Of a stretch of DNA of 64,000 nucleotides, positions 3,333 through 21,748 are shown in pieces. Source of the stretch: Trypanosoma brucei (Eukaryota); assembly GCA_000002445.1 (NCBI GenBank), contig CP000067.1, positions 576,001 through 640,000 of the forward strand. The letters are read 5' to 3'. The notes under the pieces were generated by a model that worked only from the letters and a program-made list of their open reading frames with translations, ran no database searches and had not been told where the DNA came from. The first letter of the stretch is position 1, and each line of letters begins with the position of its first letter. The position numbers and the translations under genes were made by a program.

Positions 3333-3353
3333 GGAAATATTCAAGAAAGCGTG

Positions 3354-4883: not shown

Positions 4884-4971
4884 CTGAGGGGCTGCGATCG
4901 GTTTGCCCCATCCTGGTCACCTTCGCTTCTGTCGGTAGTGGTACCTGCTACATCAGCGGACTATCGGTCAT

Positions 4972-5303
4972 CTCGTTCCTTTTTCATCCCTATCCTATCT
5001 GAGTTTTTTTTTTTTTGATGGACTGTTATCCCTTCTTGTGCTGTGATATGTTGCGTGTCTCTCCGCGCTTTGTATTTGTATTCACGAGGTGGCACCCGCC
5101 TGCGTAAGTTTAGCCAATGATGGAATGGTGTTCGCGGTCTCAACAGTTGAGCACCTCCCCACACCTCAAATCCACCTCTTTTTTTTTTCCACTCTACCTC
5201 TTCCATCGTGTTGTGATGAACCGTTGTGCATTATGTATTTCATTTACGTGTGCTATGGAGAGGAAGTGTAGGTGCTTGTTGTGCGGTGGTTTTACTTCTT
5301 TAT
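4972..5303. repeat. Copy A of a ~332 bp dispersed element, near-identical to 21001-21331
   Basis: Direct comparison shows identity over the full length except a T-run length difference (T13 here; T9 plus CTT in copy B, 1 nt shorter) and 1 mismatch. Copy A starts 89 nt after the ALG2 stop. Confidence 0.9.
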
Positions 5304-5396
5304 TTCCCTTGCGGCACCCGGTAGCGGTGGTTGTCCAGTTTCATTCTTCCTAGTAGGGTCTTATCGTTCAATTTTATCCCTGGATTGGTGCTGATA

Positions 5397-6569
5397 ATGC
5401 AGACCGGCCCATTCGCCGCCGTTACACGCGTTCCCGATCATGTGCGCAACATGATTCTGAACGAAATTGCTTCCGAGAACATATGGCTATTTGATCGTGG
5501 CCGGTGCGAAGCGGTAACGGTGGGCGATATGCGGTCCTCCTCCTTTTCTATCCCGATGGCCGAGTCTCCCCCTGCAGTTGGATGCGAATTGGATAACAAT
5601 GAACATCTTCTTCTCTACGATCTGATGCGCGTGCGTAACGGCCAGGTTATGTTTGAGAACGACCATTTCAGTCGGATACGGCAAAATTGTATATTGACTG
5701 CCCCTACAGCCTGCGATGCCGCTAACGTATCGGAGGATGAGGACCTGGGGAAACTCTCAACTTACATTGAGGGTGTGCGGTCGACGACACGAGATTTCAT
5801 TAAATGTAACCCATGGGAAAATGGAGACGTCAATCTCAAGTTTGTTACATGGGTGCTTCCTTCCCAGTTGAGCGACGTATCAACGGCAGAGAGGCGAAGC
5901 GAGCTTCTTCGAACTCTTTCCTACGCGGTTTACTACGTAACTTCCTTTTTCCCTCCGGAGGATTGGTACGAGGAGGGAACGCGTTATGCCATGCTTTATG
6001 ATGCTCAGCGGCATACACCAAATGCAAAGATCCTGCAAGTCCCCCTGCGTGAGCGAGCAAAGGCGCTTCAACAGACCACTAACGCATTCGAGGTGCTTCT
6101 TGTGTCGGATAACAGGCGGCACTATCTTGTTCCTGAAGGATCACGCTCAAACTATCTTATTGTCTCCGGTGACGAGTCATTGCTCTGTTCATTGGAGGAA
6201 GACATTCTTGTTGGCATTACTCTCCGTGTTGCTCGAAGGGCTGCTGCATGTGCTCGCCTTCCACCCCTGCGACACCGTAAGCTTGTTTTGGGGGACATTT
6301 GCCTGGCGAAGAGCATTGCAATGTTGGGTACAAGCCCCGGTGTATTACCCATCAAAGAGATTCAAGTATTCTACGATGAGGAAAGTAAACAGAATTTCCT
6401 TTTAGCAATGGAAGATTATATGCAAGACAAGGATGAAGAGATCCAGCGTGCTGTCATCAATGTGCGTGGCCGCATATTGAATGATGACGGACTACTCCGA
6501 TTGGAAAGTCCAAGCTGCGATACGCTGAAGCGCCTCAGAGCGGCCTATGAAGCGGAGGCTCTTCTTTAA
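5397..6569 (+). CDS. Class IV aminotransferase-fold protein (PabC/ADC-lyase-like), possibly catalytically divergent
   Basis: LLLYDLMRVRNGQVMFENDHFSRIRQNC resembles the class IV N-terminal GxFET/R...H..RL block. FEVLLVSDNRRHYLVPEGSRSNYLIVSGDESLLCSLEEDILVGITLRV resembles E.L.L...G.v.EgsxsNxF.v..g.L.TP.....L.GITR. KSIAMLGTSPGVLPIKEI resembles EvFlTgTa.eV.PV..I. The ORF-track start is TTG, so I moved it to the ATG at 5397. Confidence 0.45.
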   Translation: MQTGPFAAVTRVPDHVRNMILNEIASENIWLFDRGRCEAVTVGDMRSSSFSIPMAESPPAVGCELDNNEHLLLYDLMRVRNGQVMFENDHFSRIRQNCILTAPTACDAANVSEDEDLGKLSTYIEGVRSTTRDFIKCNPWENGDVNLKFVTWVLPSQLSDVSTAERRSELLRTLSYAVYYVTSFFPPEDWYEEGTRYAMLYDAQRHTPNAKILQVPLRERAKALQQTTNAFEVLLVSDNRRHYLVPEGSRSNYLIVSGDESLLCSLEEDILVGITLRVARRAAACARLPPLRHRKLVLGDICLAKSIAMLGTSPGVLPIKEIQVFYDEESKQNFLLAMEDYMQDKDEEIQRAVINVRGRILNDDGLLRLESPSCDTLKRLRAAYEAEALL

Positions 6570-7449
6570 TTACTGTAGGAAAAGGGTATAAAGGACTGTG
6601 CTCGTTAATGTGGAAGAGGTAGCATCCCCTCGCTTGCTTTGTTATTATTAATATTAAATTGCGGGCGACAATGCCCTAGTAAGAGATGGCTAGAGGGGGG
6701 GGGGCCGTAAGTGTTTTTTTTTTTTTAATCGCTTGTTCGTTTTACTTTATTTTTTCCCCCTAATTATTTGTTTAGTGTTCGGTTTGACACGTAATAGTAC
6801 AAGTGCCTGAACGTGAATGCGGAGAAGATGACACGACTCCGAAACTTTTGTGGTTTTGCTAAGCATTTCGGAGATCGACGGAGGGGGGAGGGTTAAAGAG
6901 TGTTTTTGTAGTGAGTTGCTTTTATATTTGTTTAGAGATCCATGCGCGTTGAAAACGACGCTTCGTAATTGAAAGATACATTTTCCCCCATTCAGTTTGT
7001 TATCGGCTCCTGTTTACTTTGATTGGGCGTCCCTCCCCATGGTGAGGCGCCTGAGTGGAAAAGAAAATATTTTTTTAAAAAAAAGACGAGTGAAAAAGGA
7101 TGCCGCTACTTGTTTTTATGACTCCGTGCCTATTACCTTACATATGGCTAACGGTTTGACAGGCAAACCTGCGAAAGCTCCACACTTCTCTTCCGCCGCT
7201 CCGTTTTCTCACCACGGCGTGTCGTCGGCTCTTTCCAACGCATTAAACGTCGTCTGTTCGGAGCTTATGATTAGTATTCGCAGAAAGTTCTAGAAGGTAA
7301 AACAATATAGTAGACGAGGGAGGTGCAGCGAGAAGGAAGGAACGTCGACCACCAGTTTGTGTGTGTGTTTTGCATTGTGAACGGGAGCCATCTACCTCAA
7401 TACCTGACATCCCCGTTGGTGCTTCCGCAGCTTTATCCGAACTGGAGCG

Positions 7450-8451
7450 ATGATATTACGGCACTCTCGCCGCCTGTTGGCGATGGAGGGGGAGCGCAAA
7501 TTCACATTTCCAAGCACTCCAGCAACTCTCAGTACTGGCGGCGTGCCCTTCTATGGTAATATTTACGCAGGACGTGTTGACACACAAAATTATGTGCCTC
7601 CACCACAAGAGGGGTCTGGACTTATCAAACCAAACAGTAGCGCGTGGGACGACCCTCAGGTGCGCTCTAAGATTGAGCGGTGCCCGTATTTTGCGCTCTG
7701 CGATCAGGTTGTATGGCACAATATGGATCCAGCTTACTTGGACCCCGGCCTCCTTACAATGGAGGAGCACCAGTTGCTGCTACTATTTAGCCGTGCATAC
7801 TATGAAAAGTGGAAGTTAATCCACAAGCGGCCGCCCAATGCTCTTCCACGCGTGCGCATTAAGTACGGGTCCACCGTTCTTTTAGAAGAAATGTTGGAGC
7901 TCATCGACGTTCCGGTGCCCGTGCGGCGTGCACTGGTAAGGGAGTTTCAGGTCGACGACGCCTCCCTTATCGCTATGGACCCCGACTGCTGGTCAGCCGC
8001 GTACCTCGACCCGTTTAACAGGGATCATTTTTCCGGTCGCGTGCTGGAGTTTGCTGACATGAGTGAGGCTCATCGTGAGAAGTTCTACCTCCTTCTGCGG
8101 CAGATGCGTCGTATTGTTGTGGTGCGACGGGATACACCAGAAGAGGAGCGGTTGGTGCTACCCTTTTCGTCTGGTATAACATTGTATGACCTTTCTAAAT
8201 ATTTAGGTATTGAGCCGTACGGTGGTCAACTGAAGGTTTACGATTATGTGGACCTCCAGAAGACACAACAGGTGATTACACTGAAGGATGAGGACAGTTA
8301 CTTTGACTACCTCGTCACGACTTTCTTTAAGGCAAACCTCCGCAACGCCACCCTTAGCGACGTTGCTGACGACATGGACAACACAGCGCGGTACACCATT
8401 ACCGTGGAGCCCTTCACTGTTGCCGAGAGGCGCATCGGACGATGGTTTTGA
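7450..8451 (+). CDS. Hypothetical protein (333 aa); no recognisable domain
   Basis: A long ORF with an ATG start, in the same orientation as its neighbours, and complex non-repetitive sequence. Confidence 0.5.
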   Translation: MILRHSRRLLAMEGERKFTFPSTPATLSTGGVPFYGNIYAGRVDTQNYVPPPQEGSGLIKPNSSAWDDPQVRSKIERCPYFALCDQVVWHNMDPAYLDPGLLTMEEHQLLLLFSRAYYEKWKLIHKRPPNALPRVRIKYGSTVLLEEMLELIDVPVPVRRALVREFQVDDASLIAMDPDCWSAAYLDPFNRDHFSGRVLEFADMSEAHREKFYLLLRQMRRIVVVRRDTPEEERLVLPFSSGITLYDLSKYLGIEPYGGQLKVYDYVDLQKTQQVITLKDEDSYFDYLVTTFFKANLRNATLSDVADDMDNTARYTITVEPFTVAERRIGRWF

Positions 8452-9250
8452 TTTCCTTTTTTTTTCTCGCTACGTAGCGTTCTACATACTGTACTCTGCA
8501 GGTCGCATTTCATCGCCCTGGTCGGCGTCTTCAAGTGTTATTGTCGCTTCTGTGTTATCTGGTTGGGGCACTGTATACCCAGTATTTGGATGTGGCCAAT
8601 TTTGCCTTTCTTCCACTGGGGAGGGGGAGGAATGCTATTTGTTACCAGTTATTGTTGCCGCATCAAACACTGGCTCTGAGTTTTGTAGAACAGGGGACGA
8701 TTTGAGGTCACGAAGCGGTGTGAGGAGTTCGGCAGTTCTGTGTACTTTTCACCGCATCTTATTACACGACCCACCAGCTTTCACTTCTTTTACATGAACG
8801 CTCGCACTCGCTCACAATGATATACGTTAAGGATTCCTGTTTTGGGTTTCTCATTTGCACCGATCCAATTGTCGCTCACCTCCACACACACACACGGTAC
8901 CTTTACGCTAACGTACGATTTCCTATTTTTCTTTTTTTTTTTTTAAAAAATCTTTCTCCGCTTTCTTTTGTATCTTTCGGCGCATTCGTGTGTATCGTGC
9001 CGTAAAGGAAGCGACTACAATCTAGGGGCACAAGAGGAGAAAGTCAGGTAGTCTCTACGATAACGCAAGCGCCATCAGCAACATCCACTACAGTTGTGGG
9101 GAAACACAGAGCCGGTTGACATTTGTAATCATATACGTTTTCTCTCGTTGCCGACGCATCGCAAGATAAGTCACATATTGACAACTTTAGTTCTCATAGA
9201 AGTGACATAGTTACATTAACTAGGAGGAGTGAGTCTTTACGGTTAGTGCC

Positions 9251-9799
9251 ATGTCCTCATCTCGTCCTGCCACTGGGAACCGCTTAGCCGTTCCTATCCG
9301 GACAAATCTTCCCGTTCCCGCACCCCGTAAGCGCCGATTTGAATTAACGGATGAGCAACGACAGGAGATTCGCGAAGCATTCGAGCTGTTCGACTCCGAC
9401 AAGAACGGTCTTATCGATGCGCATGAAATGAAGGTTAGCATGCGGGCACTTGGATTTGATGCAAAGAAAGAGGAGGTCTTGCGCATGATGCAAGACTGCG
9501 CGGCGCGGGATCAGCATAATAACCCACTTATGGACTTAGCGGGATTCACTGATTTGATGACCGAACGCTTTGCTCAACGGGACCCACGGCAGGAGATGAT
9601 CAAAGCGTTTCAACTGTTCGATGAGAACAATACGGGGAAAATATCTCTGCGTTCCCTCCGTAGGGTTGCAAGAGAATTGGGCGAGAACATGACGGATGAA
9701 GAATTGCAAGCCATGATTGACGAGTTCGACACAGATCAAGATGGCGAGATTAATCTTGACGAATTCCTTGCCATCATGCTGGAAGATGATGACTACTGA
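9251..9799 (+). CDS. Centrin (caltractin), an EF-hand calcium-binding protein
   Basis: EF-hand loops [12 protein letters not shown] and [13 protein letters not shown] are present. A basic N-terminal extension is typical of centrins. The protein is 182 aa and starts at an ATG. Confidence 0.85.
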
Positions 9800-11498
9800 G
9801 AGGAAGGGGTGTGATTTCAAGGAGTTGGCGTGCGAATTTATCCCTTCCCCCGATCCGGTGGGCGTAACGGTGGATGAAGTACGCGGAAACGGGGGTGAAT
9901 AGAGCGAGTTCTACTGCTATCATCAAAATTATCACTGCTATTGTTGACATTCATAGAATAAAGGTGAAAATGACGAAATGTGCGTCCACCCGTCGGCGGT
10001 GATATATATATATATATATATTTATTTATTTATTTATTTATACGATACATACTCGATGTTGGTGTGCCTTCTTGCCTGCTAAGGTTATAGACAAGGATCG
10101 TTATATGAGCTGTGTCCGCCTTGTCGATTCCCCCCAAAAAATTCACTCTTCCTTTTTTCGGCTGTCGTAAAATGTCTTTTATTGTTATTACCACTATTAA
10201 AACTATCATATTTCTGTTGGATTGCGATAAAAGAAGTTGGCGGAGGGAAAAAGAAGAAAAGCAAATGAAAGAAATTATTTCCCCCCCCCCCTGTTGGCTT
10301 ACGAACATCCAAACTTTTCCTTGCCGCTACTTTTTGCGGTGGGAGTCCCTGCCAGGTGAAGGCCGGAGAGCAGTGAATTAATCCCTTCATTTTGTTGTTG
10401 TTTGCTCCTGCCTAAACGCGGTTTGCCCCCATATCGCATTCTCAACTACCGCATCTTTACCTCATACACGTTCCTTTCTCTCTTTCCTTCTTTCTTACAG
10501 TGTAGCGCCTTCAATACCACTTTTGCATATGATTTAATAACCCGCGCAAAACGTCTGGCCTCCATTAAATGGCATTAGAACTCGGCTGAATTTTCAGTAC
10601 CTTAGCGCGGAGTGAGAGGGGCCCTTCCTCCTCCTCCTACTCCTACTCCTCCTTTATTTTTATTTTTTTTGGAAGTGTGTGCCTCTTTTATTATCGTGTT
10701 AACTGTGGTCCACTCATTCTCTATTCATTGGCCTACCACCGCAATTAAAATACACGTGTGGATGAAGACGATCCGCATGAAGGAATTACATACAGCTTCT
10801 AAGGGATGACGGGGCACATGTTTCCGTAGGGAGAAGAGGTTTATGGGTGCACATATGCATGTATGTTTGTTTGTATGCGTATGGATTTGCTTTCATATGT
10901 CTGTCCACCCTTATTTCTCAATGTATCTTGTTGCTGCCACCGCCTTTTCCCATATTTCCCTTTCGTATTCTTGACTTGGTGCTGTTGTTGCTCCCACTTT
11001 TAAAAAAAGGGGGAAAATAAAGAACAAAAAAAAAAAAGAAGAAAATACAGATATTGCTACAAACAGCGCGTGCGGTGGTGCGAAGGTAGAAAGTGTTTGT
11101 AGCAATATCCCAAAATAAATTGATTCTCTCCAAAGGTGTGGCAAAGCACAGAGTAACGAGGGGGTTGGGCGAAAATTAAAGCGGGAAAAGAATTCGAAAA
11201 AAAAACAAAAAGAAAGAAATAAAGAGAGGTGAAAGGTGAAAGAGGAAATACAAAAAGTGAAAAGTGAAAGGAAACTGGATCAAAACATTTGTCCCACGAG
11301 AACAAAAACAAAAACAATAGCAACAATAGCAGCAATAATAACAACAACAATAGTTTCCTTTTTCCCCTCTCCTCTCCCCCATCCATACATCCCTAGGGGT
11401 GGAGACGATAAGAAAAGATAAGGTAAGATAAAGAGAAATAAGGGGAGATTTCTTTTTTTTTTTTTAGATAGGAAATACAGGAGAGTAGCGGGATATCG

Positions 11499-12062
11499 AT
11501 GACGCAAAACAAGGTGAGGAAGTCCAGTTCCATCATTTCTACCATACGTGGAGCTCTCTCCTTTACACGGAAGGATGAAGGGAGTCCTGCGGGTTCGCTC
11601 GGCACCCCGCTGATACGCAGCGACCCGGTTCCCATGTGTTTCCGTCGACCCCAATCATCACATGGCTGCCCGGCTGCCAGCAATCCAACTTCTTTTACTC
11701 TTCGCTCTCATGCGATGGATGACAGGAGGGATTTACTGGAAGAGGAGGAGGCGATGTTTGGTGGATTCCGACCAAAGGAGGAGGCCCTTCGAGGGAGTTC
11801 TGGTTTTTGTATTTCATCACTTTCCTTTTCACCACAACTCGTCGCAATGAATGGGGACCTTTCACCCAGTGAGCGATGGGATGATTATGATGGTTATGAT
11901 CAATATAATAATAATAATATTAATGGTGATGATGATGATGATGATGATGATTCGAACTGTAAGTTTCATGTACACAGTGAGGAGCCGCCTGCTGGCACCC
12001 GCAAGCGAGTGGAGGAATGGATAAAGACTCAAATGCCTACCGTCAAACCAGCCGCTTCATGA
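11499..12062 (+). CDS. Hypothetical acidic low-complexity protein (187 aa) with an Asn-rich and poly-Asp tract
   Basis: The ORF starts at an ATG and is co-oriented. A (GAT)8 run encodes DDDDDDDD. There is no recognisable domain, so it could be non-coding. Confidence 0.3.
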   Translation: MTQNKVRKSSSIISTIRGALSFTRKDEGSPAGSLGTPLIRSDPVPMCFRRPQSSHGCPAASNPTSFTLRSHAMDDRRDLLEEEEAMFGGFRPKEEALRGSSGFCISSLSFSPQLVAMNGDLSPSERWDDYDGYDQYNNNNINGDDDDDDDDSNCKFHVHSEEPPAGTRKRVEEWIKTQMPTVKPAAS

Positions 12063-13994
12063 GGCGGGGGGGGGAGGGGGAAAAAAAGAAAAAAAAAGAA
12101 AGAAAGAAGGTTTTACTTTCTCCTATTACCTTGATTTCAATGAACATTGGATTCAACTTTTTCATTTGGTTTTTTTTCTTGGTTTGTGCTTGTGTTTAAA
12201 GTTTTACACCCACTCGTTATTTTCGTTTCGATTTTTTCCCCCATCCATTTCTTTTCGTTTCTACACGCTGCATAGACTGATTTATATATTTATTTATTTA
12301 TTTATTTGAATGCACGAATAAAGTAAATAAATAAATAAATTAGACGATGCTGCAAGGGTTTTTGACTTAGTTTCTTGCAGTAAATATGCAGTGATTGGTA
12401 AAAGAAAAAAAAAAGATAAATGGACAACGGGTGGGTTGTTGGGGAGTTTTTTTTTTTTGAATTAATATTATTGATTTTTTTCCACTTCTTTTTTTTTTCG
12501 TGCTGTTTCCCGTTTTCTTTTTTTTTTTTTTACTTTGGTTAACTGAGATGGTAATTGCTTTTTCTTCATTTTTTTTTAATTTTTTTTTTTTCGCGTGTGT
12601 GTGTCTGAGTGGGTTTGTGTGGCCGTGTCTCTGCCTGTTTTTTGTTTGTTTGTTTTTTTTTTTTTTTTGGTGGTGGTGGTGGTGATGGTTTAAATGAAGT
12701 GATGATCAGAAGGTGAAGGAGAAAAGTGACAAAAATGGTATAATTAATTTTAAAAAAAAGAAAAGGAGAAAAAGAAAAATTGACAACGCGTGAGAATTTG
12801 ATTGTGTGCGGGTGGGAAAATTTTTTTTTTCCTTTCCTTCCTTTTTACATGATATCAACTTTGCATCTCCATTCATGATGCCAGACACAAGAACTTATGT
12901 ATGTATGAATTAAATAATTTATATTTATTTATCTCAACATTAAAATATACGAGTACGCACATGTGTGTATTCATGATTGGAGAAAATAGAAAGGAAAGGA
13001 GGAAGTGTTTGGTTGGGTGCAAATCTTCTTCTTTCTTTCTTTCTTTCTTCTTTGTTTTTTTATATTATTATTATTATTATTTTATTTATTACTTCATTCC
13101 ATTTCCCCATCCTGTGCTTTGCCCATCTGAAGCAAACAACTGATTATTTAAGTAAAATAATAATAATATTATTGTTATTATTGGTATTGGTATTGTATTA
13201 AGATGAATTCACGGATGGAGACAAAATGAAGAGGAAAGTCGATAAGCTTCCCAGTTTGTATGCGTATTTGTCTGTTTTCGTTTTTTTTGTTTTTTGTTTT
13301 GTTATTTAGAGTGGGGAGGAGGTTTGGACGAATGAAAAAAAAATAAATGCTCTCATGCTTGCTTATACGTTGCCGCGCCCGCGTTTGTGTCTCTTTAGTT
13401 CTTAATATATTTTATGTGCTGCATTCTCTTAAGTAGTAAAGGAGAAGAGGAAGGAAAATGAAGGAAAGAGAAGAAAAGTCAAGTAAATCTTAAATTTACA
13501 GGAAAAAGAGGGAATAGGAGAACACGATAGAGTGAATAAATAAATATATCAACGGAAACGAATACATATATATATATATATATATTACAAAAGAGTCCAA
13601 CTGGAAGGTAACACGGTTGCGCGCCTATTTTGCGGATCGGTAATATATATATATATATATATATGTTTATTTGTGGATTTTGTAATTCAGTTTCCTCCTT
13701 TCCTGTGATTGTGCAATTTGGATATTTGTATTATCCATATGTGTTTGTACATTTACGCGCCCTTGTGTAATAATAGTAATTACGGTAGTATTGAGCCCCC
13801 ACACCCACATGAAGCGGCACATATATTTATTTATTTATTTTGTTTATCCCGTAGCGCTTTCTTTCGTTTTTATCTATTTTATGTTTGTAGTGGTGGTAAC
13901 GTAAGTTATTGTCACCGCTTTCCTGTGCCGTCCCGTACTGTACTGTACTGTACTGTACTGTACTGTACTGTACTGTACTGTACTAGGCCGTCTC

Positions 13995-14029
<35 letters not shown>

Positions 14030-15890
14030 TTATCTTGGAATATATTTCACACTACCAATTTCGCAGTGGCGCAATGGAAATAAGGAAAGAATTAGCGGTG
14101 TCAGTTCTATCGTCACTGTTTCAACATTTCATCACAGTCAGATGCGTCTGTGTGCAGTTTTCAATGTAGATATTTTAAGGAACAATCACCATAATAATTA
14201 AGGCGCTTTTGATGCATTAAACCGCAGAGTCACGCGGTGTCGCTCTTTTTTTTTTTTTTTGTTGTTGTTATTGTTGTGTTTGCCGAGTGTTTCACCTCTC
14301 AAATAAATTTAAAATTACACAAACGTATTTACGCATATTTATATGTGTGCGCTTTGTTTTTTGTTCCCGCATGTTGTACATACCTCCGCTTCCCTTTTGC
14401 GATTATTATTTCCATTTATTTGTGTATTAATAATATAATTAGTGTTTCGACACGTGCTTCTTTTTTTTTTTTTGCTTTCCGTTATTTTACATTATTATTG
14501 CCTCGTCAAGCGACCCGGATGGCGTTATCTGTTTTGTTGTATGTCTTCATCTATGTCTTGTCTGTTTTCTGATTATCTTAGTTTAGTTTAGTTTTTTTTT
14601 CCTGTTCATCTACTCGTCTTTCCTCTTATTTTTTCCTTCCAGCATTTGTTTAAATTATTGTTGTTTAGTATGTTTTTTTTTTCTTCTATTTTCGCTATTA
14701 CTTATCACCATTGGTTTTGGAGGCTCGTCAATTATTTATTTATTTATTTACTTTTCTGCTGTGCTATTTTATTGTTATTATTTTTTCGTTCTTCTAAATA
14801 ATTCCTTCGAAGGGGAGCGGAGAATAATGTGGGTGTCATCAGAGAATGGTGAAGGGGAACTCCACTCCTTTAAAAAAAAAAAAAGAAGAAAAGGAGAAAA
14901 AAACGGCAACACAAAACAACACATGTCGTGTTGAATTGTTTAGTTGTTTGAGTGCTTAAATTGTGGTTTCGCTGGAGCAGTGAAGAGAACAAGAAATATA
15001 TGAGCATAAATAAATAAATATATTTTTATCATGGAAGTGATGAATCATTGAGTGAAATGAGTGAGTTTTGTTTTAGTGTTGTGTTGTGTTGTGTTGTGTG
15101 CTTACCTTCTTGAGGACGCGTTTGGGAGGATTATGTTGTGAGCGGAGTTACCACTCAACTTGGAGTGGAGGTGCACATTATTAATATTATTATTTTAGTA
15201 TCTGCCTTTACATACGTGGTTCTGTGGGCGTAAATATAAATATACATGTGTGACTCAGTACAAAATGTAGGAGGCAAGTTATAAGCAGCGGGAGTGCTTG
15301 TCCATGTAACCGGCCTGTGTAACGCAGCAGTTTTCTTTTCTTTTCTTTTTTTCCTTTTCCTCTTGCTCGTCTCGTTGCAAAGAGAAATTGAAAACAAAAA
15401 AAAAAAAGAAAAATAGGAGAGCAGAAAAAAAAAAACAACAAAATTGACTTCACTGGAATGGGAATTCGTTCATTACCTTTTCATTTCATTCGTACTTCTC
15501 TTTTTTTTTTTTTGACTCCCGCGTTTCTTTCTTACCTTCCACTACTCATTCAAGGTAATTGATGTTTTACTTTCTTCTTTTTCTTTTTGTTTTTTTTTGT
15601 CAAAAATAAGTAAACCGGTCCGTGGTTTTTTTATATCTGTAGGTCGTTGATCGAAACAACCACCGCCGATCAGTTTCCGAAGTGAAGGGCGGTCTCCCCC
15701 TCCTCTTTTGGGCCCGACACGTGAATAGACAAACTCACATTCATATTTAAGGAGAACGAAAGGTGTGGCAAGAACCAACCAAACAAAACACAAGGATTAA
15801 ATAAAGGGAGAATAAAAAATAAAAAATACGGTATAGATCTTCTTCATAGAAACTATCGTCCCACTCTTCTTCCTACTGCTTACAGAAATC
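12063..15890. repeat. 3.8 kb gene-free, low-complexity microsatellite-rich intergenic tract
   Basis: No ORF with complex sequence is present. The tract contains T/C-rich and A/G-rich blocks, (TTTA)n, (TA)n, (TACTG)n, (TGTTG)n and (ATT)n. Confidence 0.8.
13936..13984. repeat. (TACTG)~10 perfect pentanucleotide tandem repeat
   Basis: Direct read: gtactgtactgtactg... x10. Confidence 0.9.
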
Positions 15891-15903
15891 AAAAGTGTGC
15901 GAC

Positions 15904-16842
15904 ATGGACGAATACGGTGATTTTGACAATAGAGACACATATGATACGGATGAGGCGGCCTTCCTCACGTCCCGCCTTGCAATGCGTGCTGAGGAAGTGG
16001 AAGCGAATGTGAGCGGCTCGCAGTTTCTTAACTCACCTCGCAATGGCAGCACTTTAGACGCAGAAGAGGACGAGGAGGCCAATTTTACACCAAATGTGTT
16101 GGGAGGTCCAACGAATGACACGCCATTATTTTACGGGGAGGAACTTGACTCGTTGATACAGTCACAAGAGCGAAATGTGGCTGGAAACGTCACGACTCAA
16201 AACATAGATGCCAGTGAGGGGGATGCGCTGCACATTGACGAGCATGAAGAAAATGATGACATCGACAATAATGACGTTGATGACGACGACGAAGGTGATG
16301 ATGATGATGATGATAATAATAATAATAATTTTCTAATTGATAACTACGAACCCCCGGAGCACACGGATATGGCGAGTGGCGGTTCCGGTTGTGAGGGAGG
16401 GGGCGACCGTACGCCGTTCGCCCTTTCCCGTGTGAGGGAGCTACTAAAATTTCATAGCAATTCGACTATTGTTTCCAAGGATGCGGTTACTACGGCATCG
16501 GAGGCTGTGGTACTCATTTTACAGGATTTGACACGAATGGCTGCGGCACAGGCGGAGCGGAACAACCGCAAAACTGTGAGATATTCCGACGTGGCGACTG
16601 TGGTGCAGCACTATGACCGGTTTTCCTTCCTTTTAGATATCCTACCACCAGTACCTGAGGTTAAGAAGCACTCATCTAAGCCAGTGCAGAGGCAAACTGC
16701 TATCGTACCGACAGGTTCAAAGGTTGGCCAAACACCGCGGAGTTCTCAGAAGCAACAGCAGCTGCAGCAGACGGGCACCCAGCGGGGCAGCCACATGCGA
16801 CAGGCCAAACTTAGTTTCGGCAATGCGGCCGACTGCATATAA
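15904..16842 (+). CDS. Histone-fold protein of the H2A-like NC2alpha(DRAP1)/Dpb3/NF-YC/CHRAC family with an acidic N-terminal region
   Basis: TPFALSRVRELLKFHSNSTIVSKDAVTTASEAVVLILQDLTRMAAAQAERNNRKTVRYSDVATVVQHYDRFSFLLDILP parallels the NF-YC/Dpb3 consensus LPLARIKKIMK...[35 protein letters not shown]..DIA.A....D.FDFL.DIVP. The ORF-track start is GTG, so I moved it to the ATG at 15904. Confidence 0.6.
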   Translation: MDEYGDFDNRDTYDTDEAAFLTSRLAMRAEEVEANVSGSQFLNSPRNGSTLDAEEDEEANFTPNVLGGPTNDTPLFYGEELDSLIQSQERNVAGNVTTQNIDASEGDALHIDEHEENDDIDNNDVDDDDEGDDDDDDNNNNNFLIDNYEPPEHTDMASGGSGCEGGGDRTPFALSRVRELLKFHSNSTIVSKDAVTTASEAVVLILQDLTRMAAAQAERNNRKTVRYSDVATVVQHYDRFSFLLDILPPVPEVKKHSSKPVQRQTAIVPTGSKVGQTPRSSQKQQQLQQTGTQRGSHMRQAKLSFGNAADCI

Positions 16843-17289
16843 GTCCACGTGGTACCGCTCACTACTGTGCAGCGGCACCGTTGAATGTGGCGTGAGCGAC
16901 ACGATGCCAGTTTTTTGACATTTAGGTTCGTGTACATGCTAATGAGGAGGTGTACTTTTTGTTTGGTCTCCTTACGTCTACACAAGCTATTACCCCCCCC
17001 CTTCTCTCTCTCTCTCCACCGTGTGAGTATCGTTAAATGCCTTGTAGTTGACTTATACCTATGGCATTGTGTTGTGGGAAGAGAGACACTAAACTGCTTT
17101 TCCCTTCCCTTGTTTTCGCTGTGTCTTTGTTGTTGTACTGCCTTCGCTTCCTAACAAGTATGCTTCTGTGTTACTTGTTTCATTCTCTTGTACTTGTTTG
17201 CACTACAACGACTCTAGTGTGGTAGTTTGTTGGCTATATTTACTGCTGCAAGGGAAGGTAAAACTACAGGTAAGAAACTGGCCGAAGAT

Positions 17290-18438
17290 ATGTTGCCTCA
17301 TTCGGTGCCCACGTCGCCTCATCAGGAACGTGACCGGCCCTTAGAGCAGATGACGGATGAGGAGTTACGACGTGAGTTGGTGATGCTCATTCGTACGAAT
17401 GCCATTCTCGCTGAAGAGTCTGCAGGCCTCCAAGCAGATATTAGTGCCCTCTGTGAGGAGTCTGTGAGGTTTCAACAGAGTACAGAAATTGAAGAAGACA
17501 AGGTGACAAATCAGTTGTTGCGGCGCCTTCAGAGCGAGGAGGTGCAGAAACACCGCTTCCACCACCAGATCCTCTGTGAGGAAAAGGCGCGACGAAAGAT
17601 CATGGATCAAATCACACAGGTCCGGCAGCAGATGGAGCTAGAGAAACAGCTTGAACAAGAACAGGAAGTGCAGCGGATGGAACTTCAGCGAAAGCTGATC
17701 GATGTGGTGAATAAAAAGATTGAGGTGGAGCGACAGCTGCTGGAAGAACGTCGTGTCCAACTTGAGGCACTAACGACAAAACTAGCTTCCATAAAGGAAG
17801 GATCATTGGCGGCAAAGTCGAAGGTCGACGGGGCTGTTGGTTCTCGAGGAACTCAGGGGCCAAGCGCATCTTCACAGCAGTGTCAGTCGGGAACAGCAAA
17901 TATGACGCATGAATCGCCTGCTGCTGCTGCTGCTGCTGCTGTCGCAGCATCCTCTCAGCCTCCACCCGTGAAAACAGAGACGGTACCGTCATCGGTAGAC
18001 TTGCCTGCTTCCGACGTTGCGGGCGATGACACGCATGGCACCATCATTAGGTTAGAGGAGCAGTTGAACCGACTCTTAGAACAACATGCCGCCGCAACAC
18101 AGGCAAGTGCAACCAACGAGAGTCTGTGCACAGAGTTGGGTAGGAACCTAGAAACTATTCAGCAAGCAGCTTCGGTTGATAGAGCTCGTACGCTGAAGTT
18201 AAAGGAAGAGCTGCAGGAAACCAAGCGAAGAGTGGCCGTACTGGAGCAGCGCGCTGCCGTTGGCACGGCGTATGCCGCATCCGATGATAGTTCTGATTTG
18301 CCTACGCCATCGGTCTCCTCCTTGTACGATGACAAGAGACGGGAATCGCTCCTCAATTGCCACCAGCGGTACCCAAGCAGTTGTGTACCACCATCATGCT
18401 CCGCTTCTGAAGCCGGTGAAGATACACGATCCGTCTAA
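17290..18438 (+). CDS. Coiled-coil protein (Glu/Gln/Leu/Arg-rich heptads) with poly-Ala tract and Ser/Pro-rich C-terminus
   Basis: A long charged heptad-like region runs ELRRELVMLIRTNAILAEE...QQMELEKQLEQEQEVQRMELQRKLIDVVNKKIEVERQLLEERRVQLEAL. A (GCT)n run encodes AAAAAAA. The ORF-track start is TTG, so I moved it to the ATG at 17290. Confidence 0.5.
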   Translation: MLPHSVPTSPHQERDRPLEQMTDEELRRELVMLIRTNAILAEESAGLQADISALCEESVRFQQSTEIEEDKVTNQLLRRLQSEEVQKHRFHHQILCEEKARRKIMDQITQVRQQMELEKQLEQEQEVQRMELQRKLIDVVNKKIEVERQLLEERRVQLEALTTKLASIKEGSLAAKSKVDGAVGSRGTQGPSASSQQCQSGTANMTHESPAAAAAAAVAASSQPPPVKTETVPSSVDLPASDVAGDDTHGTIIRLEEQLNRLLEQHAAATQASATNESLCTELGRNLETIQQAASVDRARTLKLKEELQETKRRVAVLEQRAAVGTAYAASDDSSDLPTPSVSSLYDDKRRESLLNCHQRYPSSCVPPSCSASEAGEDTRSV

Positions 18439-19289
18439 GCAGCTGACAATACCAATGCATGGGAACAACTCGGCGTCTAGGGAAGTGGAGAATTAGTCAC
18501 GTGATGTTACAAAGTAGTGGGAATGGGTATATTCGGTTTTTGAGTTTTTTTTTTGGGGGGGGGGAAACATCTTAGAAGGAATTTGGGGATCAGGGAGACA
18601 GAGTTGTGTGTGTGTAAATTCTGTGGTTGGTCCGGCAAGAAGAAAGTAACCGGAGTGATATCGGCGGGCGCTCGTCTGTGGGCACGGGTGGTTACTGCAC
18701 TTTTTTTTTTTTGGCCGTTGAGTTTTCAGTCGATTCTACCTTACTGCGCTGAAGTCCTTCGACTTAACTCTCACCTCATTTCTTTCGATCGTTCTTTTAC
18801 TTTATTCTCTCTATTTTGTTTTTTACCACAGCGATGCAGAAAAAAGGCACTTTTCAACCTGTCCTATTTCCTCCCGTCCCCATTACTCCTCCGGCTGTGA
18901 CGGTGCACTTCCCCTATTTTCTTATTCCCTCTTTGTTGTTTTTGGTTTTTTTTTTCCGCGTTTCCCCTTATGTTTCCCTTATATTTGAAACTACCAATTA
19001 TTTTCTTCATGGAAACGCAGGTACAAAAGAAAAATAGTTGTTCCTTGAGGGCGACGAGTGCTTATGTGGTGGAGCCAGTCCCCTTTCTTTACAAAATGAT
19101 GCGATCACCCTTGTAAATCCTTTTCCTCCACATGTTTGCGCTCCGTGCGTTGAGCTCGTTTTGCAAAAATCGGTTCAGTTTTGTTTTATATCATTTTTCT
19201 CACCTTGCTATTTCCGTTTGTTTTTTTCCTTTCCACCTCCTACTTCCTAATGACCAGCGGGGTACCTCTAGTATCTTTGCTTACCCATT

Positions 19290-20948
19290 ATGATTGAGGG
19301 AAGCAGAAACTCAAGCGCCGTAAAGAAGCGGCTGGTCGCCAAACCGTTGGAGGAGTGTGCGCCGCTTAACTTGTTGGGTGCGGAAGATGTGATGGGAGCT
19401 CTTCACACTTCTTCAGTGTCATTCTTTACATGGGGAATTCTTCAGACCGTCATCGTGCACTGCTTCGCAGGTGCGCTCTTCGGTTATGGTATAGGTTTTG
19501 TAGGGCCGTACTACACACTTTACAAAATGGGAAGCGATTGTATGACAGTGACGACTCAATCCACCTGCCCGATGTTTATCCCAGAAAAGTGTACCTGGAA
19601 GGACAATGCATGTAAGTTTGTCGTTGACAACTGTAGCGGACAGTTAAAGGAGGCTTGTGGCGCCAGCAGTTCCTCAAGTGTTTCTCAAACGTGCTACTGG
19701 AACCACAAAACGAACGTGTGCCAGCCGATGGCTGGTTTTACAGCATTACAAAACGGTATCTTTGCTGGCGCGTTTATTTTTGGAGGCTGCATCGGGTCTC
19801 TCATATCCGCTCCTCTTCTCTCAGTGTCGGGACATCGAATAACCTTTCTTTTGTGTGGATTCGTTGGTACGGTAGGGGGTGCGCTGACACACTTTGCAAC
19901 TTATACGGATTCATACATGCTCTTGGTGGCGGGGCGCTTTCTTACTGGAGTTTCGGCCGGTGTACTTTGTGTGAGTTCTCCCGCGTATGTGGAGGAAACG
20001 GCACCAATACAACATCGGCAGCTCGTTGGAGTTTTCTTCCAGATTGCATGTACGTTCGGTATTCTCAGTGCTTCGGCCATGGGCTTAGGTCTTGCACAGC
20101 GAAGCTTCTCCACACAACACGACATGCAACAACGACAACAGATGTTTTGTTTGCCAGGAACAATCATCGCGCTGCTCATGATGTTTATTAGTGGACCCAT
20201 GAGGGAGAGCGTTGTGTGGATGGAACAGCGCCACCTTTCCAGGCCAGGGGAGCAGGACGATTTGGTCACCTTTGCTGAGGGCCGCGTTTCGTACGGAACA
20301 GTGATATCAAGTGATCCGAAGCCTGGATGGGGAGGTGTTAAGGGACAGCTGCTCACCGCTTTAGTTCTGTGCATTGCACAGCAACTTACTGGCATGAATG
20401 CCATTATGAACTACGCCCCCATTATCACGGACAGAATGGGCCTGGAGCCACTTTTTGGAAACTTCGTTGTTATGGCATGGAACTTCATTACGGTACTTAC
20501 TTCGATTCCAATATCCTCCAGGGCGCATGCGGACCGCGCTTACGTTGTGGCTCTGCTTTTGGCCTCCTTATCGTGCTTGCTGGTGGCCGTGGCGGTGCTA
20601 CCATTTTTTGGCTTTAGTAGCAATCTAAAAGTAAAACTGTCGGCTACCGGAATACTGCTTTTTATCACCTTCTTTGAGTTGGGAATGGGAAGTTTCTTTT
20701 GGACTCTCTCGCAGGGCATCTTCCCCCCAAACTTCCGTCACCGAGGATCAAGTTTTACGGTGCTTGTTCATTTTTTAATTAACATCGTTATTAACGTAGG
20801 GTTTCCCCTTGCGGTGGAGTGGCTCTCGGGTGGTCCCTCAGGAAACCAAGATGTTGGAATGGGCATTGCTTTCCTCTTTTTTGGTATTGTGGGTCTCCTG
20901 TCAACTGCCTACCTGCACAGGCATTTACGCTTATGGCAATCATCTTAG
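19290..20948 (+). CDS. Hexose transporter, an MFS sugar porter of the trypanosome THT/TcrHT type
   Basis: It has 12-TM architecture and a Cys-rich first exofacial loop. The C-terminal half has strong family motifs: LTGMNAIMNYAPIITDRMGLEPLFGNFVVMAWNF is comparable to THT INAVMNYAPKITENLGMDPSLGNFLVMAWNF. PESVEW-like and FPPNFR/GSSF motifs are present. The start is an ATG. Confidence 0.85.
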   Translation: MIEGSRNSSAVKKRLVAKPLEECAPLNLLGAEDVMGALHTSSVSFFTWGILQTVIVHCFAGALFGYGIGFVGPYYTLYKMGSDCMTVTTQSTCPMFIPEKCTWKDNACKFVVDNCSGQLKEACGASSSSSVSQTCYWNHKTNVCQPMAGFTALQNGIFAGAFIFGGCIGSLISAPLLSVSGHRITFLLCGFVGTVGGALTHFATYTDSYMLLVAGRFLTGVSAGVLCVSSPAYVEETAPIQHRQLVGVFFQIACTFGILSASAMGLGLAQRSFSTQHDMQQRQQMFCLPGTIIALLMMFISGPMRESVVWMEQRHLSRPGEQDDLVTFAEGRVSYGTVISSDPKPGWGGVKGQLLTALVLCIAQQLTGMNAIMNYAPIITDRMGLEPLFGNFVVMAWNFITVLTSIPISSRAHADRAYVVALLLASLSCLLVAVAVLPFFGFSSNLKVKLSATGILLFITFFELGMGSFFWTLSQGIFPPNFRHRGSSFTVLVHFLINIVINVGFPLAVEWLSGGPSGNQDVGMGIAFLFFGIVGLLSTAYLHRHLRLWQSS

Positions 20949-21000
20949 ACACCGAGTGGTGTGTACAGGCTGCTTTCTCTTTTCAGAGTAATGCAGCTGG

Positions 21001-21331
21001 CTCGTTCCTTTTTCATCCCTATCCTATCTGAGTTTTTTTTTCTTGATGGACTGTTATCCCTTCTTGTGCTGTGATATGTTGCGTGTCTCTCCGCGCTTTG
21101 TATTTGTATTCACGAGGTGGCACCCGCCTGCGTAAGTTTAGCCAATGATGGAATGGTGTTCGCGGTCTCAACAGTTGAGCACCTCCCCACACCTCAAATC
21201 CACCTCTTTTTTTTTTCCACTCTACCTCTTCCATCGTGTTGTGATGAACCGTTGTGCATTATGTATTTCATTTACGTGTGCTATGGAGAGGAAGTGTAGC
21301 TGCTTGTTGTGCGGTGGTTTTACTTCTTTAT
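21001..21331. repeat. Copy B of the ~332 bp dispersed element, in the 3' flank of the hexose transporter
   Basis: Near-identical to 4972-5303. It starts 52 nt after the transporter stop. Confidence 0.9.
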
Positions 21332-21748
21332 CTTTTGCTTTTTCGCTTCACCAAAAATGTTTACCCTGCCGGGGAGGGAGGAGAGGAGCTTACGATTTTT
21401 TACTGTACTGAAGATTGCATTTTCTTCTAGATACATTTCTGAGGCCGTTCCACACAAACACAGTATTACTGTCGAGAATTTGGATAGTTATTTTATTTCC
21501 TTGTTGTTTCGATTTTTCTTTTATTCATCCATGCCTCAGGCTCTGCGTGTTTATCATTCCATCTGTACGCGCATATCTGTGTTTTGGTTCGTTGGTTGGT
21601 GTGCAGCGAGGTGGATCATCCTTGATATACATACATATATATATATATTTATATATATATTTGTTTCACTCTCTCCTGTTAGGTAAAGCATCACGAGGAA
21701 GAGGGAAAGCAAGAGTAAAAGTAACTAATTGGCGCCCCAGAAGGGAAA

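Follow-up and report, generated by a model that had tools for sequence, protein, structure and literature searches.

A near-identical 332-bp repeat on Trypanosoma brucei chromosome 4 is probably a young two-copy non-coding duplicate homogenised by gene conversion

A non-coding sequence of 332 bp, here termed R, occurs twice on chromosome 4 of Trypanosoma brucei in the 3' flanks of two unrelated genes, and is probably a young two-copy duplicate of the T. brucei lineage that is homogenised by gene conversion and not a mobile element. The DNA analyzed here, referred to as the window, is a stretch of 64,000 nt of chromosome 4 of T. brucei brucei TREU927 (Tb927_04_v4, 576001-640000), so that a window position equals the chromosome coordinate minus 576000. 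This offset was fixed by the published coordinates of Tb927.4.2300 (597749-599869) and Tb927.4.2260 (585251-585799) (Kolev et al., 2010). All large ORFs in the window lie on the plus strand, and the features relevant to the two copies of R are collected in Table 1.

Table 1. Features at and between the two copies of R, in window positions
Feature	Position	Strand	Remarks
Repeat copy A, 332 nt	4972..5303	+	Probably the original copy; orthologous site in DAL972 and IVM-t1 occupied
Repeat copy B, 331 nt	21001..21331	+	Probably derived and ectopic; orthologous site in DAL972 and IVM-t1 occupied
ALG2 mannosyltransferase CDS, Tb927.4.2230, 509 aa	3354..4883	+	Upstream of copy A; Pfam Glycos_transf_1; AAZ10814/XP_844373 exact match
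Class-IV aminotransferase-like CDS, Tb927.4.2240, 390 aa	5397..6569	+	Downstream of copy A; Pfam Aminotran_4; AAZ10815 exact match
Putative glucose transporter CDS, Tb927.4.2290, 552 aa	19290..20948	+	Upstream of copy B; Pfam Sugar_tr; AAZ10820 exact match
Conserved hypothetical CDS, Tb927.4.2300, 706 aa	21749..23869	+	Downstream of copy B; AAZ10821 exact match
Longest polypyrimidine tract, 44 nt	5171..5214	+	Inside copy A; duplicated at 21199-21242 in copy B; definition of Kolev et al.
Proximal polypyrimidine tract, 23 nt	5290..5312	+	Crosses the 3' end of copy A
AG acceptor and first exon base, predominant spliced-leader site of Tb927.4.2240	5323..5325	+	Kolev 2010 Table S12; AG checked in sequence
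AG acceptor and first exon base, predominant spliced-leader site of Tb927.4.2300	21681..21683	+	Kolev 2010 Table S12; AG checked in sequence
15.7-kb block between the copies of R, with six annotated genes (Tb927.4.2240 to.2290)	5304..21000	+	Gene order

Results

Two near-identical copies of R lie downstream of unrelated genes

Alignment of copies A and B over their full length gave 99.1% identity (BLASTN E = 1.3e-168), the differences amounting to two substitutions and one one-base indel. The run of 13 T residues at 5004-5016 of copy A reads T9-C-TT at 21033-21044 of copy B, which comprises the 1-nt indel and a T/C change, and the second substitution is G5272 in copy A versus C21300 in copy B. 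Homology breaks off sharply at both ends of R, and the flanks of the two copies are unrelated to each other. The copies form a direct repeat with a start-to-start distance of 16,029 nt. A sensitive BLASTN search (word size 7) retrieved no third copy from the 64-kb window, in which R is the sole long repeat, and the number of copies was likewise two when the T. brucei-group loci examined were included.

The gene upstream of copy A, named 'glycosyltransferase ALG2, putative' in the source database, encodes a group-1 glycosyltransferase, and the product of Tb927.4.2290 upstream of copy B is a sugar-porter MFS transporter. Copy A starts 88 nt past the ALG2 stop codon and takes up 332 of the 513 nt of the intergenic region between ALG2 and Tb927.4.2240 (4884-5396). 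In the 800-nt spacer that separates Tb927.4.2290 from Tb927.4.2300, copy B comes first, starting 52 nt past the stop codon of the transporter and leaving 417 nt between its end and the ATG of Tb927.4.2300. In both copies a GTG-started ORF of 60 aa is found (5089-5271 in copy A, 21117-21299 in copy B). Six-frame translations of R gave zero protein matches in a database of 5.8 billion sequences, in agreement with this ORF being spurious; the search says nothing on the copy number of R, since the known copies themselves, never called as genes, were not recovered by it. The initial annotation of this DNA had described two essentially identical elements in otherwise unrelated intergenic DNA, each beginning 50-90 nt after a stop codon and each carrying an internal polypyrimidine tract and the same spurious 60-aa ORF, and all of these statements were borne out.

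The duplication predates the split of the T. brucei subspecies

In T. b. gambiense DAL972, copy A was found at the orthologous site (L007, 11619-11954) and so was copy B (L005, 11712-12042). The same holds for T. b. equiperdum IVM-t1, with copy A at L006, 11619-11950 and copy B at L004, 11712-12045, and the boundaries of R are the same in TREU927, DAL972 and IVM-t1. As both copies, each with variants of its own, occupy the same sites in the separate assemblies of DAL972 and IVM-t1, the pair is not an assembly artefact, and R is real and more than a chance resemblance. The presence of both copies at the same sites in three subspecies further demonstrates that the duplication is older than the subspecies split.

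To place R beyond the T. brucei group, the gene order around the two sites was compared with that of three other trypanosomes. In T. vivax the transporter is followed by a gene for a 681-aa protein at the position of Tb927.4.2300 and by the AspRS gene, T. grayi has the same block from the aminotransferase through the transporter, and in T. melophagium ALG2 is followed by the aminotransferase through the transporter and then by a gene for a 746-aa protein at the position of Tb927.4.2300. The order of the six-gene block is thus kept in DAL972, IVM-t1, T. vivax, T. grayi and T. melophagium, and the adjacencies of ALG2 with the aminotransferase and of the transporter with the homologue of the 706-aa protein are ancestral. 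Insertion of the 16-kb block together with a duplication of 332 bp of flank was ruled out on the grounds of these adjacencies in T. vivax, T. grayi and T. melophagium. The proposal that a tandem transporter array collapsed and left the pair as its footprint likewise did not hold, as the transporter gene is single and the same single-copy order recurs in T. vivax, T. grayi and T. melophagium.

The orthologous spacers of T. melophagium (381 and 623 nt) have no repeat in common and share homopolymer runs only. In the loci examined from T. vivax, T. grayi and T. melophagium no R-like sequence was detected beyond homopolymer and (TA)n matches, indicating that the pair is not an ancient conserved arrangement. 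Judged from these comparisons, the duplication appears to have arisen in the T. brucei lineage.

R diverges at the neutral intergenic rate and its copies evolve in concert

The rate at which R changes was determined from ~31 kb of aligned sequence of TREU927, DAL972 and IVM-t1, with divergence taken between TREU927 and DAL972 and between TREU927 and IVM-t1. For R, with both copies pooled, divergence from TREU927 was 1.36-1.66% (9-11 substitutions in ~660 nt), for the other intergenic DNA (~14.9 kb) it was 1.34-1.35%, and for coding sequence 0.56-0.60%. R evolves at the neutral intergenic rate with no extra constraint.

Subsequently, the copies were compared with each other and between strains. 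Inside one genome, copies A and B differ by 2 (TREU927), 3 (DAL972) or 1 (IVM-t1) substitutions, and the same locus in TREU927 and in DAL972 or IVM-t1 differs by 4 substitutions for copy A and by 5-7 for copy B. Three alignment columns (204, 226 and 281) are informative: they read A/C/T in TREU927 and C/T/C in DAL972 and IVM-t1, in each case in both copies, and thus sort by strain and not by locus. Given that the duplication predates the strain split, variants that are shared by both copies of a strain imply that sequence has been exchanged between the copies. The copies of R are therefore under concerted evolution via gene conversion, with a tract of at least 78 nt, a conclusion that rests on the three informative sites. 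Together with the neutral rate, these sites explain the likeness of A and B by recombination and not by recent insertion or selection.

R was also considered as a small structured RNA, which was ruled out on two grounds. The predicted fold of R was not significant (MFE -76.9 kcal/mol, z = -1.21), 13 of 100 shuffled sequences folding at least as well, and no Rfam match was obtained in the window at the gathering threshold or in positions 4884-5400 at E values up to 1, the HDV-like ribozyme included.

RNA processing signals point to copy A as the original

To understand which copy is the original, published trans-splicing data were examined. The predominant spliced-leader site of Tb927.4.2240 was mapped to 581325 (window 5325; 5'UTR of 72 nt) and that of Tb927.4.2300 to 597683 (window 21683; 5'UTR of 66 nt) with a low dispersion of 5.4 (Kolev et al., 2010; Table S12), and the splice site of Tb927.4.2230 (ALG2) lies at chromosome coordinate 579334, corresponding to window position 3334 (Kolev et al., 2010). 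The acceptor of Tb927.4.2240 thus follows the end of copy A at a distance of ~20 nt, and that of Tb927.4.2300 follows the end of copy B at ~350 nt. From this distance it follows that the splice signals inside copy B are not those mainly used for Tb927.4.2300.

The polypyrimidine tract was taken, according to the definition of Kolev et al., as the longest one in the 200 nt upstream of the trans-splice site. All candidate tracts upstream of the Tb927.4.2240 acceptor lie inside copy A or straddle its end, and the proximal tract is the only one that is nearer to this acceptor than the longest one. When R is subtracted, the spacer between ALG2 and Tb927.4.2240 is reduced to 181 nt in which a pyrimidine tract is almost absent, and the spacer between Tb927.4.2290 and Tb927.4.2300 still has 469 nt with its own pyrimidine tracts and the acceptor that is actually used. 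Since only the Tb927.4.2240 acceptor relies on splice signals within R, and in view of the intergenic lengths, copy A is probably native and copy B ectopic, the direction of copying being from A to B. Copy B is dispensable for the processing of Tb927.4.2300, because this gene is spliced at 21683 with low dispersion and has pyrimidine tracts of its own.

The poly(A) sites were predicted from the splice sites. The median distance from a poly(A) site to the downstream splice site is 142 nt (Kolev et al., 2010), and subtraction of this value from 5325 and 21683 predicts polyadenylation of ALG2 near 5183, inside copy A, and of the transporter near 21541, beyond copy B, with all of copy B falling within a 3'UTR of ~590 nt. 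By this rule of thumb, the 3'UTRs of the upstream genes would take in copy B entirely and copy A for the most part. The Kolev 2010 table gives splice sites for all four flanking genes and no poly(A) sites for Tb927.4.2230 and Tb927.4.2290, and these two gene IDs are absent from the supplements of Nilsson 2010 and Jensen 2014. Taken together, copy B is probably a functionally passive rider in the 3'UTR of the transporter.

A junction in the OVI draft assembly

Contig L001 of T. equiperdum OVI is a circular permutation of the 16-kb unit, in which the transporter, R and the aminotransferase follow one another. In the same assembly, the contig that carries ALG2 stops 32 nt into R, and the contig that carries Tb927.4.2300 begins ~31-34 nt (~k-1) before the end of R. 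For OVI, digitally normalised 2x150 reads were assembled with Velvet at k=33 and the result was then extended greedily with SSAKE, and the IVM-t1 assembly was made from 2x300 reads and PacBio data. The gene order is canonical in IVM-t1 and in DAL972. The join in L001 is probably a repeat-induced misjoin, given that no read spans 332 nt, that coverage has been flattened and that the break points correspond to k-1. L001 was also considered as evidence of a real tandem duplication and was set aside in this role on account of the assembly method (Velvet, k=33).

Discussion

The origin of copy B and the likeness of the copies

The results are best accommodated by the following scenario. Copy A is probably a native RNA-processing region, which holds the distal ALG2 3'UTR together with the predicted poly(A) zone and with the pyrimidine tracts that serve Tb927.4.2240. 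Through ectopic templated repair or some comparable event at the level of DNA, 332 bp of this region were probably duplicated to a site 52 nt downstream of Tb927.4.2290, which lies 16 kb further along the same polycistronic unit, and this took place before the T. brucei subspecies diverged. Copy B is probably carried inside the inferred transporter 3'UTR, with no demonstrable role, and occasional intrachromosomal gene conversion has since kept the two copies alike. As direct repeats of 332 bp, the copies could also recombine in such a way that the 16-kb block is deleted, excised as a circle or duplicated.

The initial annotation had put forward, as one of three readings, a recently mobilised, SINE-like element comparable to RIME or SIRE. 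R is short, non-coding and located in 3' flanks, much as TbRIME, TbSIDER1/2 and the Leishmania SIDER are short non-coding repeats that often lie in 3' flanks or 3'UTRs, and its copies are nearly identical, as would be expected after a recent insertion. TbRIME measures ~500 bp. SIRE of T. cruzi is a short interspersed repeat of intergenic and UTR regions that can supply RNA-processing signals; it is a high-copy family specific to T. cruzi, and by this description R, with two copies seen at fixed sites, is set apart from it. The hallmarks of the Ingi clade's short retroposons are a 3' poly(dA), a 12-bp target-site duplication and a 5' signature of 76-79 bp (Bringaud et al., 2007, 2011; PMC2323293, PMC3820030). 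The TbSIDER1 consensus has 571 bp (Bringaud et al., PMC2323293 / PMC3820030), and the Leishmania SIDER can affect mRNA stability or translation and act as recombination substrates (PMC2323293, PMC3820030). Neither end of R carries a terminal poly(dA), the plus strand ending in ...ACTTCTTTAT and the minus strand in ...AAAAAGGAACGAG at the 3' side, and the T13 run, the only long homopolymer in R, lies 32 nt inside the repeat. A 12-bp target-site duplication is absent from both copies, as neither the flanks of copy A (ACTATCGGTCAT and TTCCCTTGCGGC) nor those of copy B (TAATGCAGCTGG and CTTTTGCTTTTT) form a direct repeat. In addition, R has the wrong size, 332 bp versus the 571 bp of the TbSIDER1 consensus, and no further copy was found in the 64-kb window or at any locus examined, whereas Ingi-clade retroposons (~500-570 bp) form a divergent, dispersed family. 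Both insertions would moreover predate the subspecies split and yet have stayed 99% alike, and the sites that co-vary by strain show that this likeness stems from exchange and not from recent insertion. The claim of mobility was thus not upheld, and it is extremely improbable that R belongs to a dispersed SINE-like or degenerate retroposon family (RIME/TSIDER-like) whose members were inserted independently at the two sites.

A regulatory role was considered as well, in which R would be a portable post-transcriptional control module under selection that co-regulates the stability or translation of the ALG2 and transporter mRNAs, with selection keeping the copies alike. In line with this idea, the greater part of copy A and the whole of copy B are predicted 3'UTR sequence of the upstream genes, and R contains U13 and U10 runs. 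Such U-runs are of the kind recognised by U-rich-element binding proteins. Furthermore, in the part of Jensen et al. (2014) considered here, Tb927.4.2290 appears in a short list of genes with mainly translational stage regulation, its translation efficiency being ~four-fold higher in bloodstream than in procyclic forms. ALG2 does not stand beside it among the rows of Table 2 considered (Jensen et al., 2014), and the 3'UTR placement of R is for both genes a prediction only. R diverges at the neutral intergenic rate (1.4-1.7% vs 1.35%), the strain-specific variants common to both copies point to exchange and not to constraint, and R has neither a significant fold nor an Rfam match. A counterpart of R is lacking in T. 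melophagium and in the transporter flank of T. vivax. We therefore regard a selected control module as distinctly unlikely. Of the earlier suggestion that a shared 3'UTR had undergone gene conversion with possible co-regulation of the two mRNAs, the first part stood insofar as concerted evolution of the copies was demonstrated and most of each copy is predicted to be 3'UTR, while co-regulation found no support in a sequence with neutral divergence, no significant fold and no Rfam match.

The pair might also be what is left of a tandem duplication of 16 kb, reaching from copy A to just past the transporter, of which the second unit was deleted save for its first 332 bp. As such a remnant would, the pair forms direct repeats on either side of a contiguous six-gene block, and the order transporter-R-aminotransferase in the OVI contig is the junction expected from a tandem duplication, or likewise from an excised circle. 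That junction is unreliable, however, as the reads cannot span 332 nt, and no other trace of a second unit is present in TREU927, DAL972 or IVM-t1. The remnant would moreover take two events whose breakpoints are unrelated, whereas a single templated insertion would suffice, and we consider it unlikely. Very improbable are two further possibilities, namely that the pair may be an active recombination hotspot with a real circular or tandem 16-kb amplicon in OVI, or that copy B may be the source of the bloodstream-biased translation of Tb927.4.2290. If the OVI amplicon were true, it would represent repeat-mediated segmental amplification at an assembly-visible frequency in a Trypanozoon strain, affecting the six genes Tb927.4.2240 to.2290. 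Repeat-mediated segmental amplification is well known in Leishmania.

R as a member of the low-copy intergenic repeats

The preferred reading, a young duplicate kept alike by gene conversion, can be compared with T. brucei tandem gene arrays, in which concerted evolution has reportedly been described (Jackson, 2007; BMC Evol Biol). As in these arrays, gene conversion keeps the copies of R on one chromosome alike, and more so than the same locus is across strains. Unlike the arrays, R contains no coding sequence, its copies are flanked by unrelated genes, and they lie 16 kb apart instead of being adjacent. The pair thus offers a clean, small example of non-coding concerted evolution between the flanks of unrelated genes, and illustrates that in T. 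brucei a conspicuous non-coding repeat with nearly identical copies need be neither mobile nor regulatory. It is also a predicted substrate for deletion or amplification of the six-gene block. In practical terms, short-read assemblies are interrupted or wrongly joined at R, as in the OVI draft and in Logan contigs, and short RNA-seq end-tags within R do not map uniquely. In other respects the pair is ordinary and has little significance beyond housekeeping.

The megabase chromosomes of T. brucei amount to ~26 Mb. A screen of trypanosomatid chromosomes for intergenic repeats of 0.2-2.5 kb with at least 85% identity showed that most repeat groups are low-copy and do not extend beyond one chromosome, the members of a pair lying 1-100 kb from each other, and that 242 of the 507 repeat alignment groups of L. 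major have only two members (Ubeda et al., 2014; PLoS Biol, PMC4028189). For T. brucei, 773 such repeats were reported, and recombination junctions were obtained at selected pairs by PCR and sequencing; stable amplification is, unlike in Leishmania, not described (PMC4028189). R is a non-coding intergenic sequence of 332 nt with 99% identity between copies that are both on chromosome 4, in agreement with the sequence criteria of this screen, and its copies have a direct orientation and lie 16 kb apart. It differs from the confirmed pairs in that its only rearrangement junction is the OVI draft contig, probably an artefact. By its sequence features, the pair appears to fit the known class of low-copy intergenic direct repeats of trypanosomatids. 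By our own arithmetic, 773 repeats in ~26 Mb amount to approximately one per 34 kb, and a single pair per 64 kb is close to what this density predicts.

Assembly junctions through the repeat

In the draft assembly of T. equiperdum OVI, R (the ~332-nt direct repeat) connects the transporter flank directly to the aminotransferase flank (contig CZPT02000920.1, L001). The layout of this contig is a circular permutation, in which window positions 13647-21331 are followed by 4972-11919. The OVI assembly was made with Velvet at k=33 from normalised reads, and the OVI contigs carrying ALG2 (L002, at its end) and Tb927.4.2300 (L003, at its start) break off ~k-1 nt within R. The transporter-R-aminotransferase join is probably a repeat-induced misjoin arising from these assembly conditions; a genuine duplication of 16 kb, or a circle of that size, would be expected to give the identical junction.

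An ALG2-bearing Logan unitig (ERR7929159_3428, L008) stops exactly 30 nt inside R. Therefore, R also breaks k=31 assemblies of further T. brucei-group read sets, and the break agrees with at least two copies of R in sample ERR7929159.

Coordinates of features in the window and in the compared contigs
Feature	Sequence	Position	Remark
Junction through R	L001 (OVI)	7287-7617	
End of ALG2 unitig in R	L008	1650-1679	
Tb927.4.2250	window	7450-8451	
Tb927.4.2250 orthologue	L001 (OVI)	9764-10984	
Second ORF	window	8288-8797	overlaps 3' end of Tb927.4.2250, different frame
Spacer, 6 kb, unusually long	window	9800-15894	flanked by centrin (Tb927.4.2260) and histone-fold gene (Tb927.4.2270)
Splice sites, Tb4.NT.19 and Tb4.NT.20	window	10506, 11010	Kolev 2010
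Poly(A) site, same transcripts	window	~14870	Kolev 2010
Low-complexity ORF, 187 aa	window	11499-12062	annotated as gene in DAL972 and IVM-t1
Tb927.4.2290	window	19290-20948	putative glucose transporter
(CA)n/(TA)n microsatellite	window	21626-21680	
(CA)n/(TA)n microsatellite	L010 (T. vivax)	~11880-11960	

The transporter and its spacer

A microsatellite lies just 5' of the start of the gene that follows the transporter in T. brucei as well as in T. vivax; in T. brucei it directly precedes the mapped trans-splice acceptor of that gene. Its conserved position in the two species points to the distal portion of the transporter spacer as the native one. The transporter itself is listed by Jensen et al. 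(2014) among the few genes with mainly translational stage regulation, with a log2 translation efficiency of ~2 in bloodstream over procyclic forms.

Neighboring genes and the long spacer

Homologues of the aminotransferase-like protein were retrieved by a word-based search from T. congolense, T. melophagium, T. theileri, T. grayi, T. cruzi, T. rangeli and Leishmania, and none from T. vivax was among the matches. T. vivax may lack the gene or carry it in a degraded or unannotated form; alternatively, this type of search may have overlooked it.

Tb927.4.2250 and its orthologues comprise 332-333 aa in TREU927, DAL972, IVM-t1, T. vivax, T. grayi and T. melophagium, whereas the OVI orthologue is annotated with 402 aa. 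Together with the overlapping out-of-frame ORF in TREU927, this difference points either to an indel of a single base in the OVI assembly or to a frameshift specific to the strain.

The spacer between the centrin and histone-fold genes is AT-rich (GC 33-36%) and dense in (TA)n, (TTTA)n and GAT/AAT repeats. For the 187-aa ORF within it, the TREU927 v4 list examined gives no gene ID. Two novel transcripts, Tb4.NT.19 and Tb4.NT.20, were placed in this spacer by Kolev 2010.
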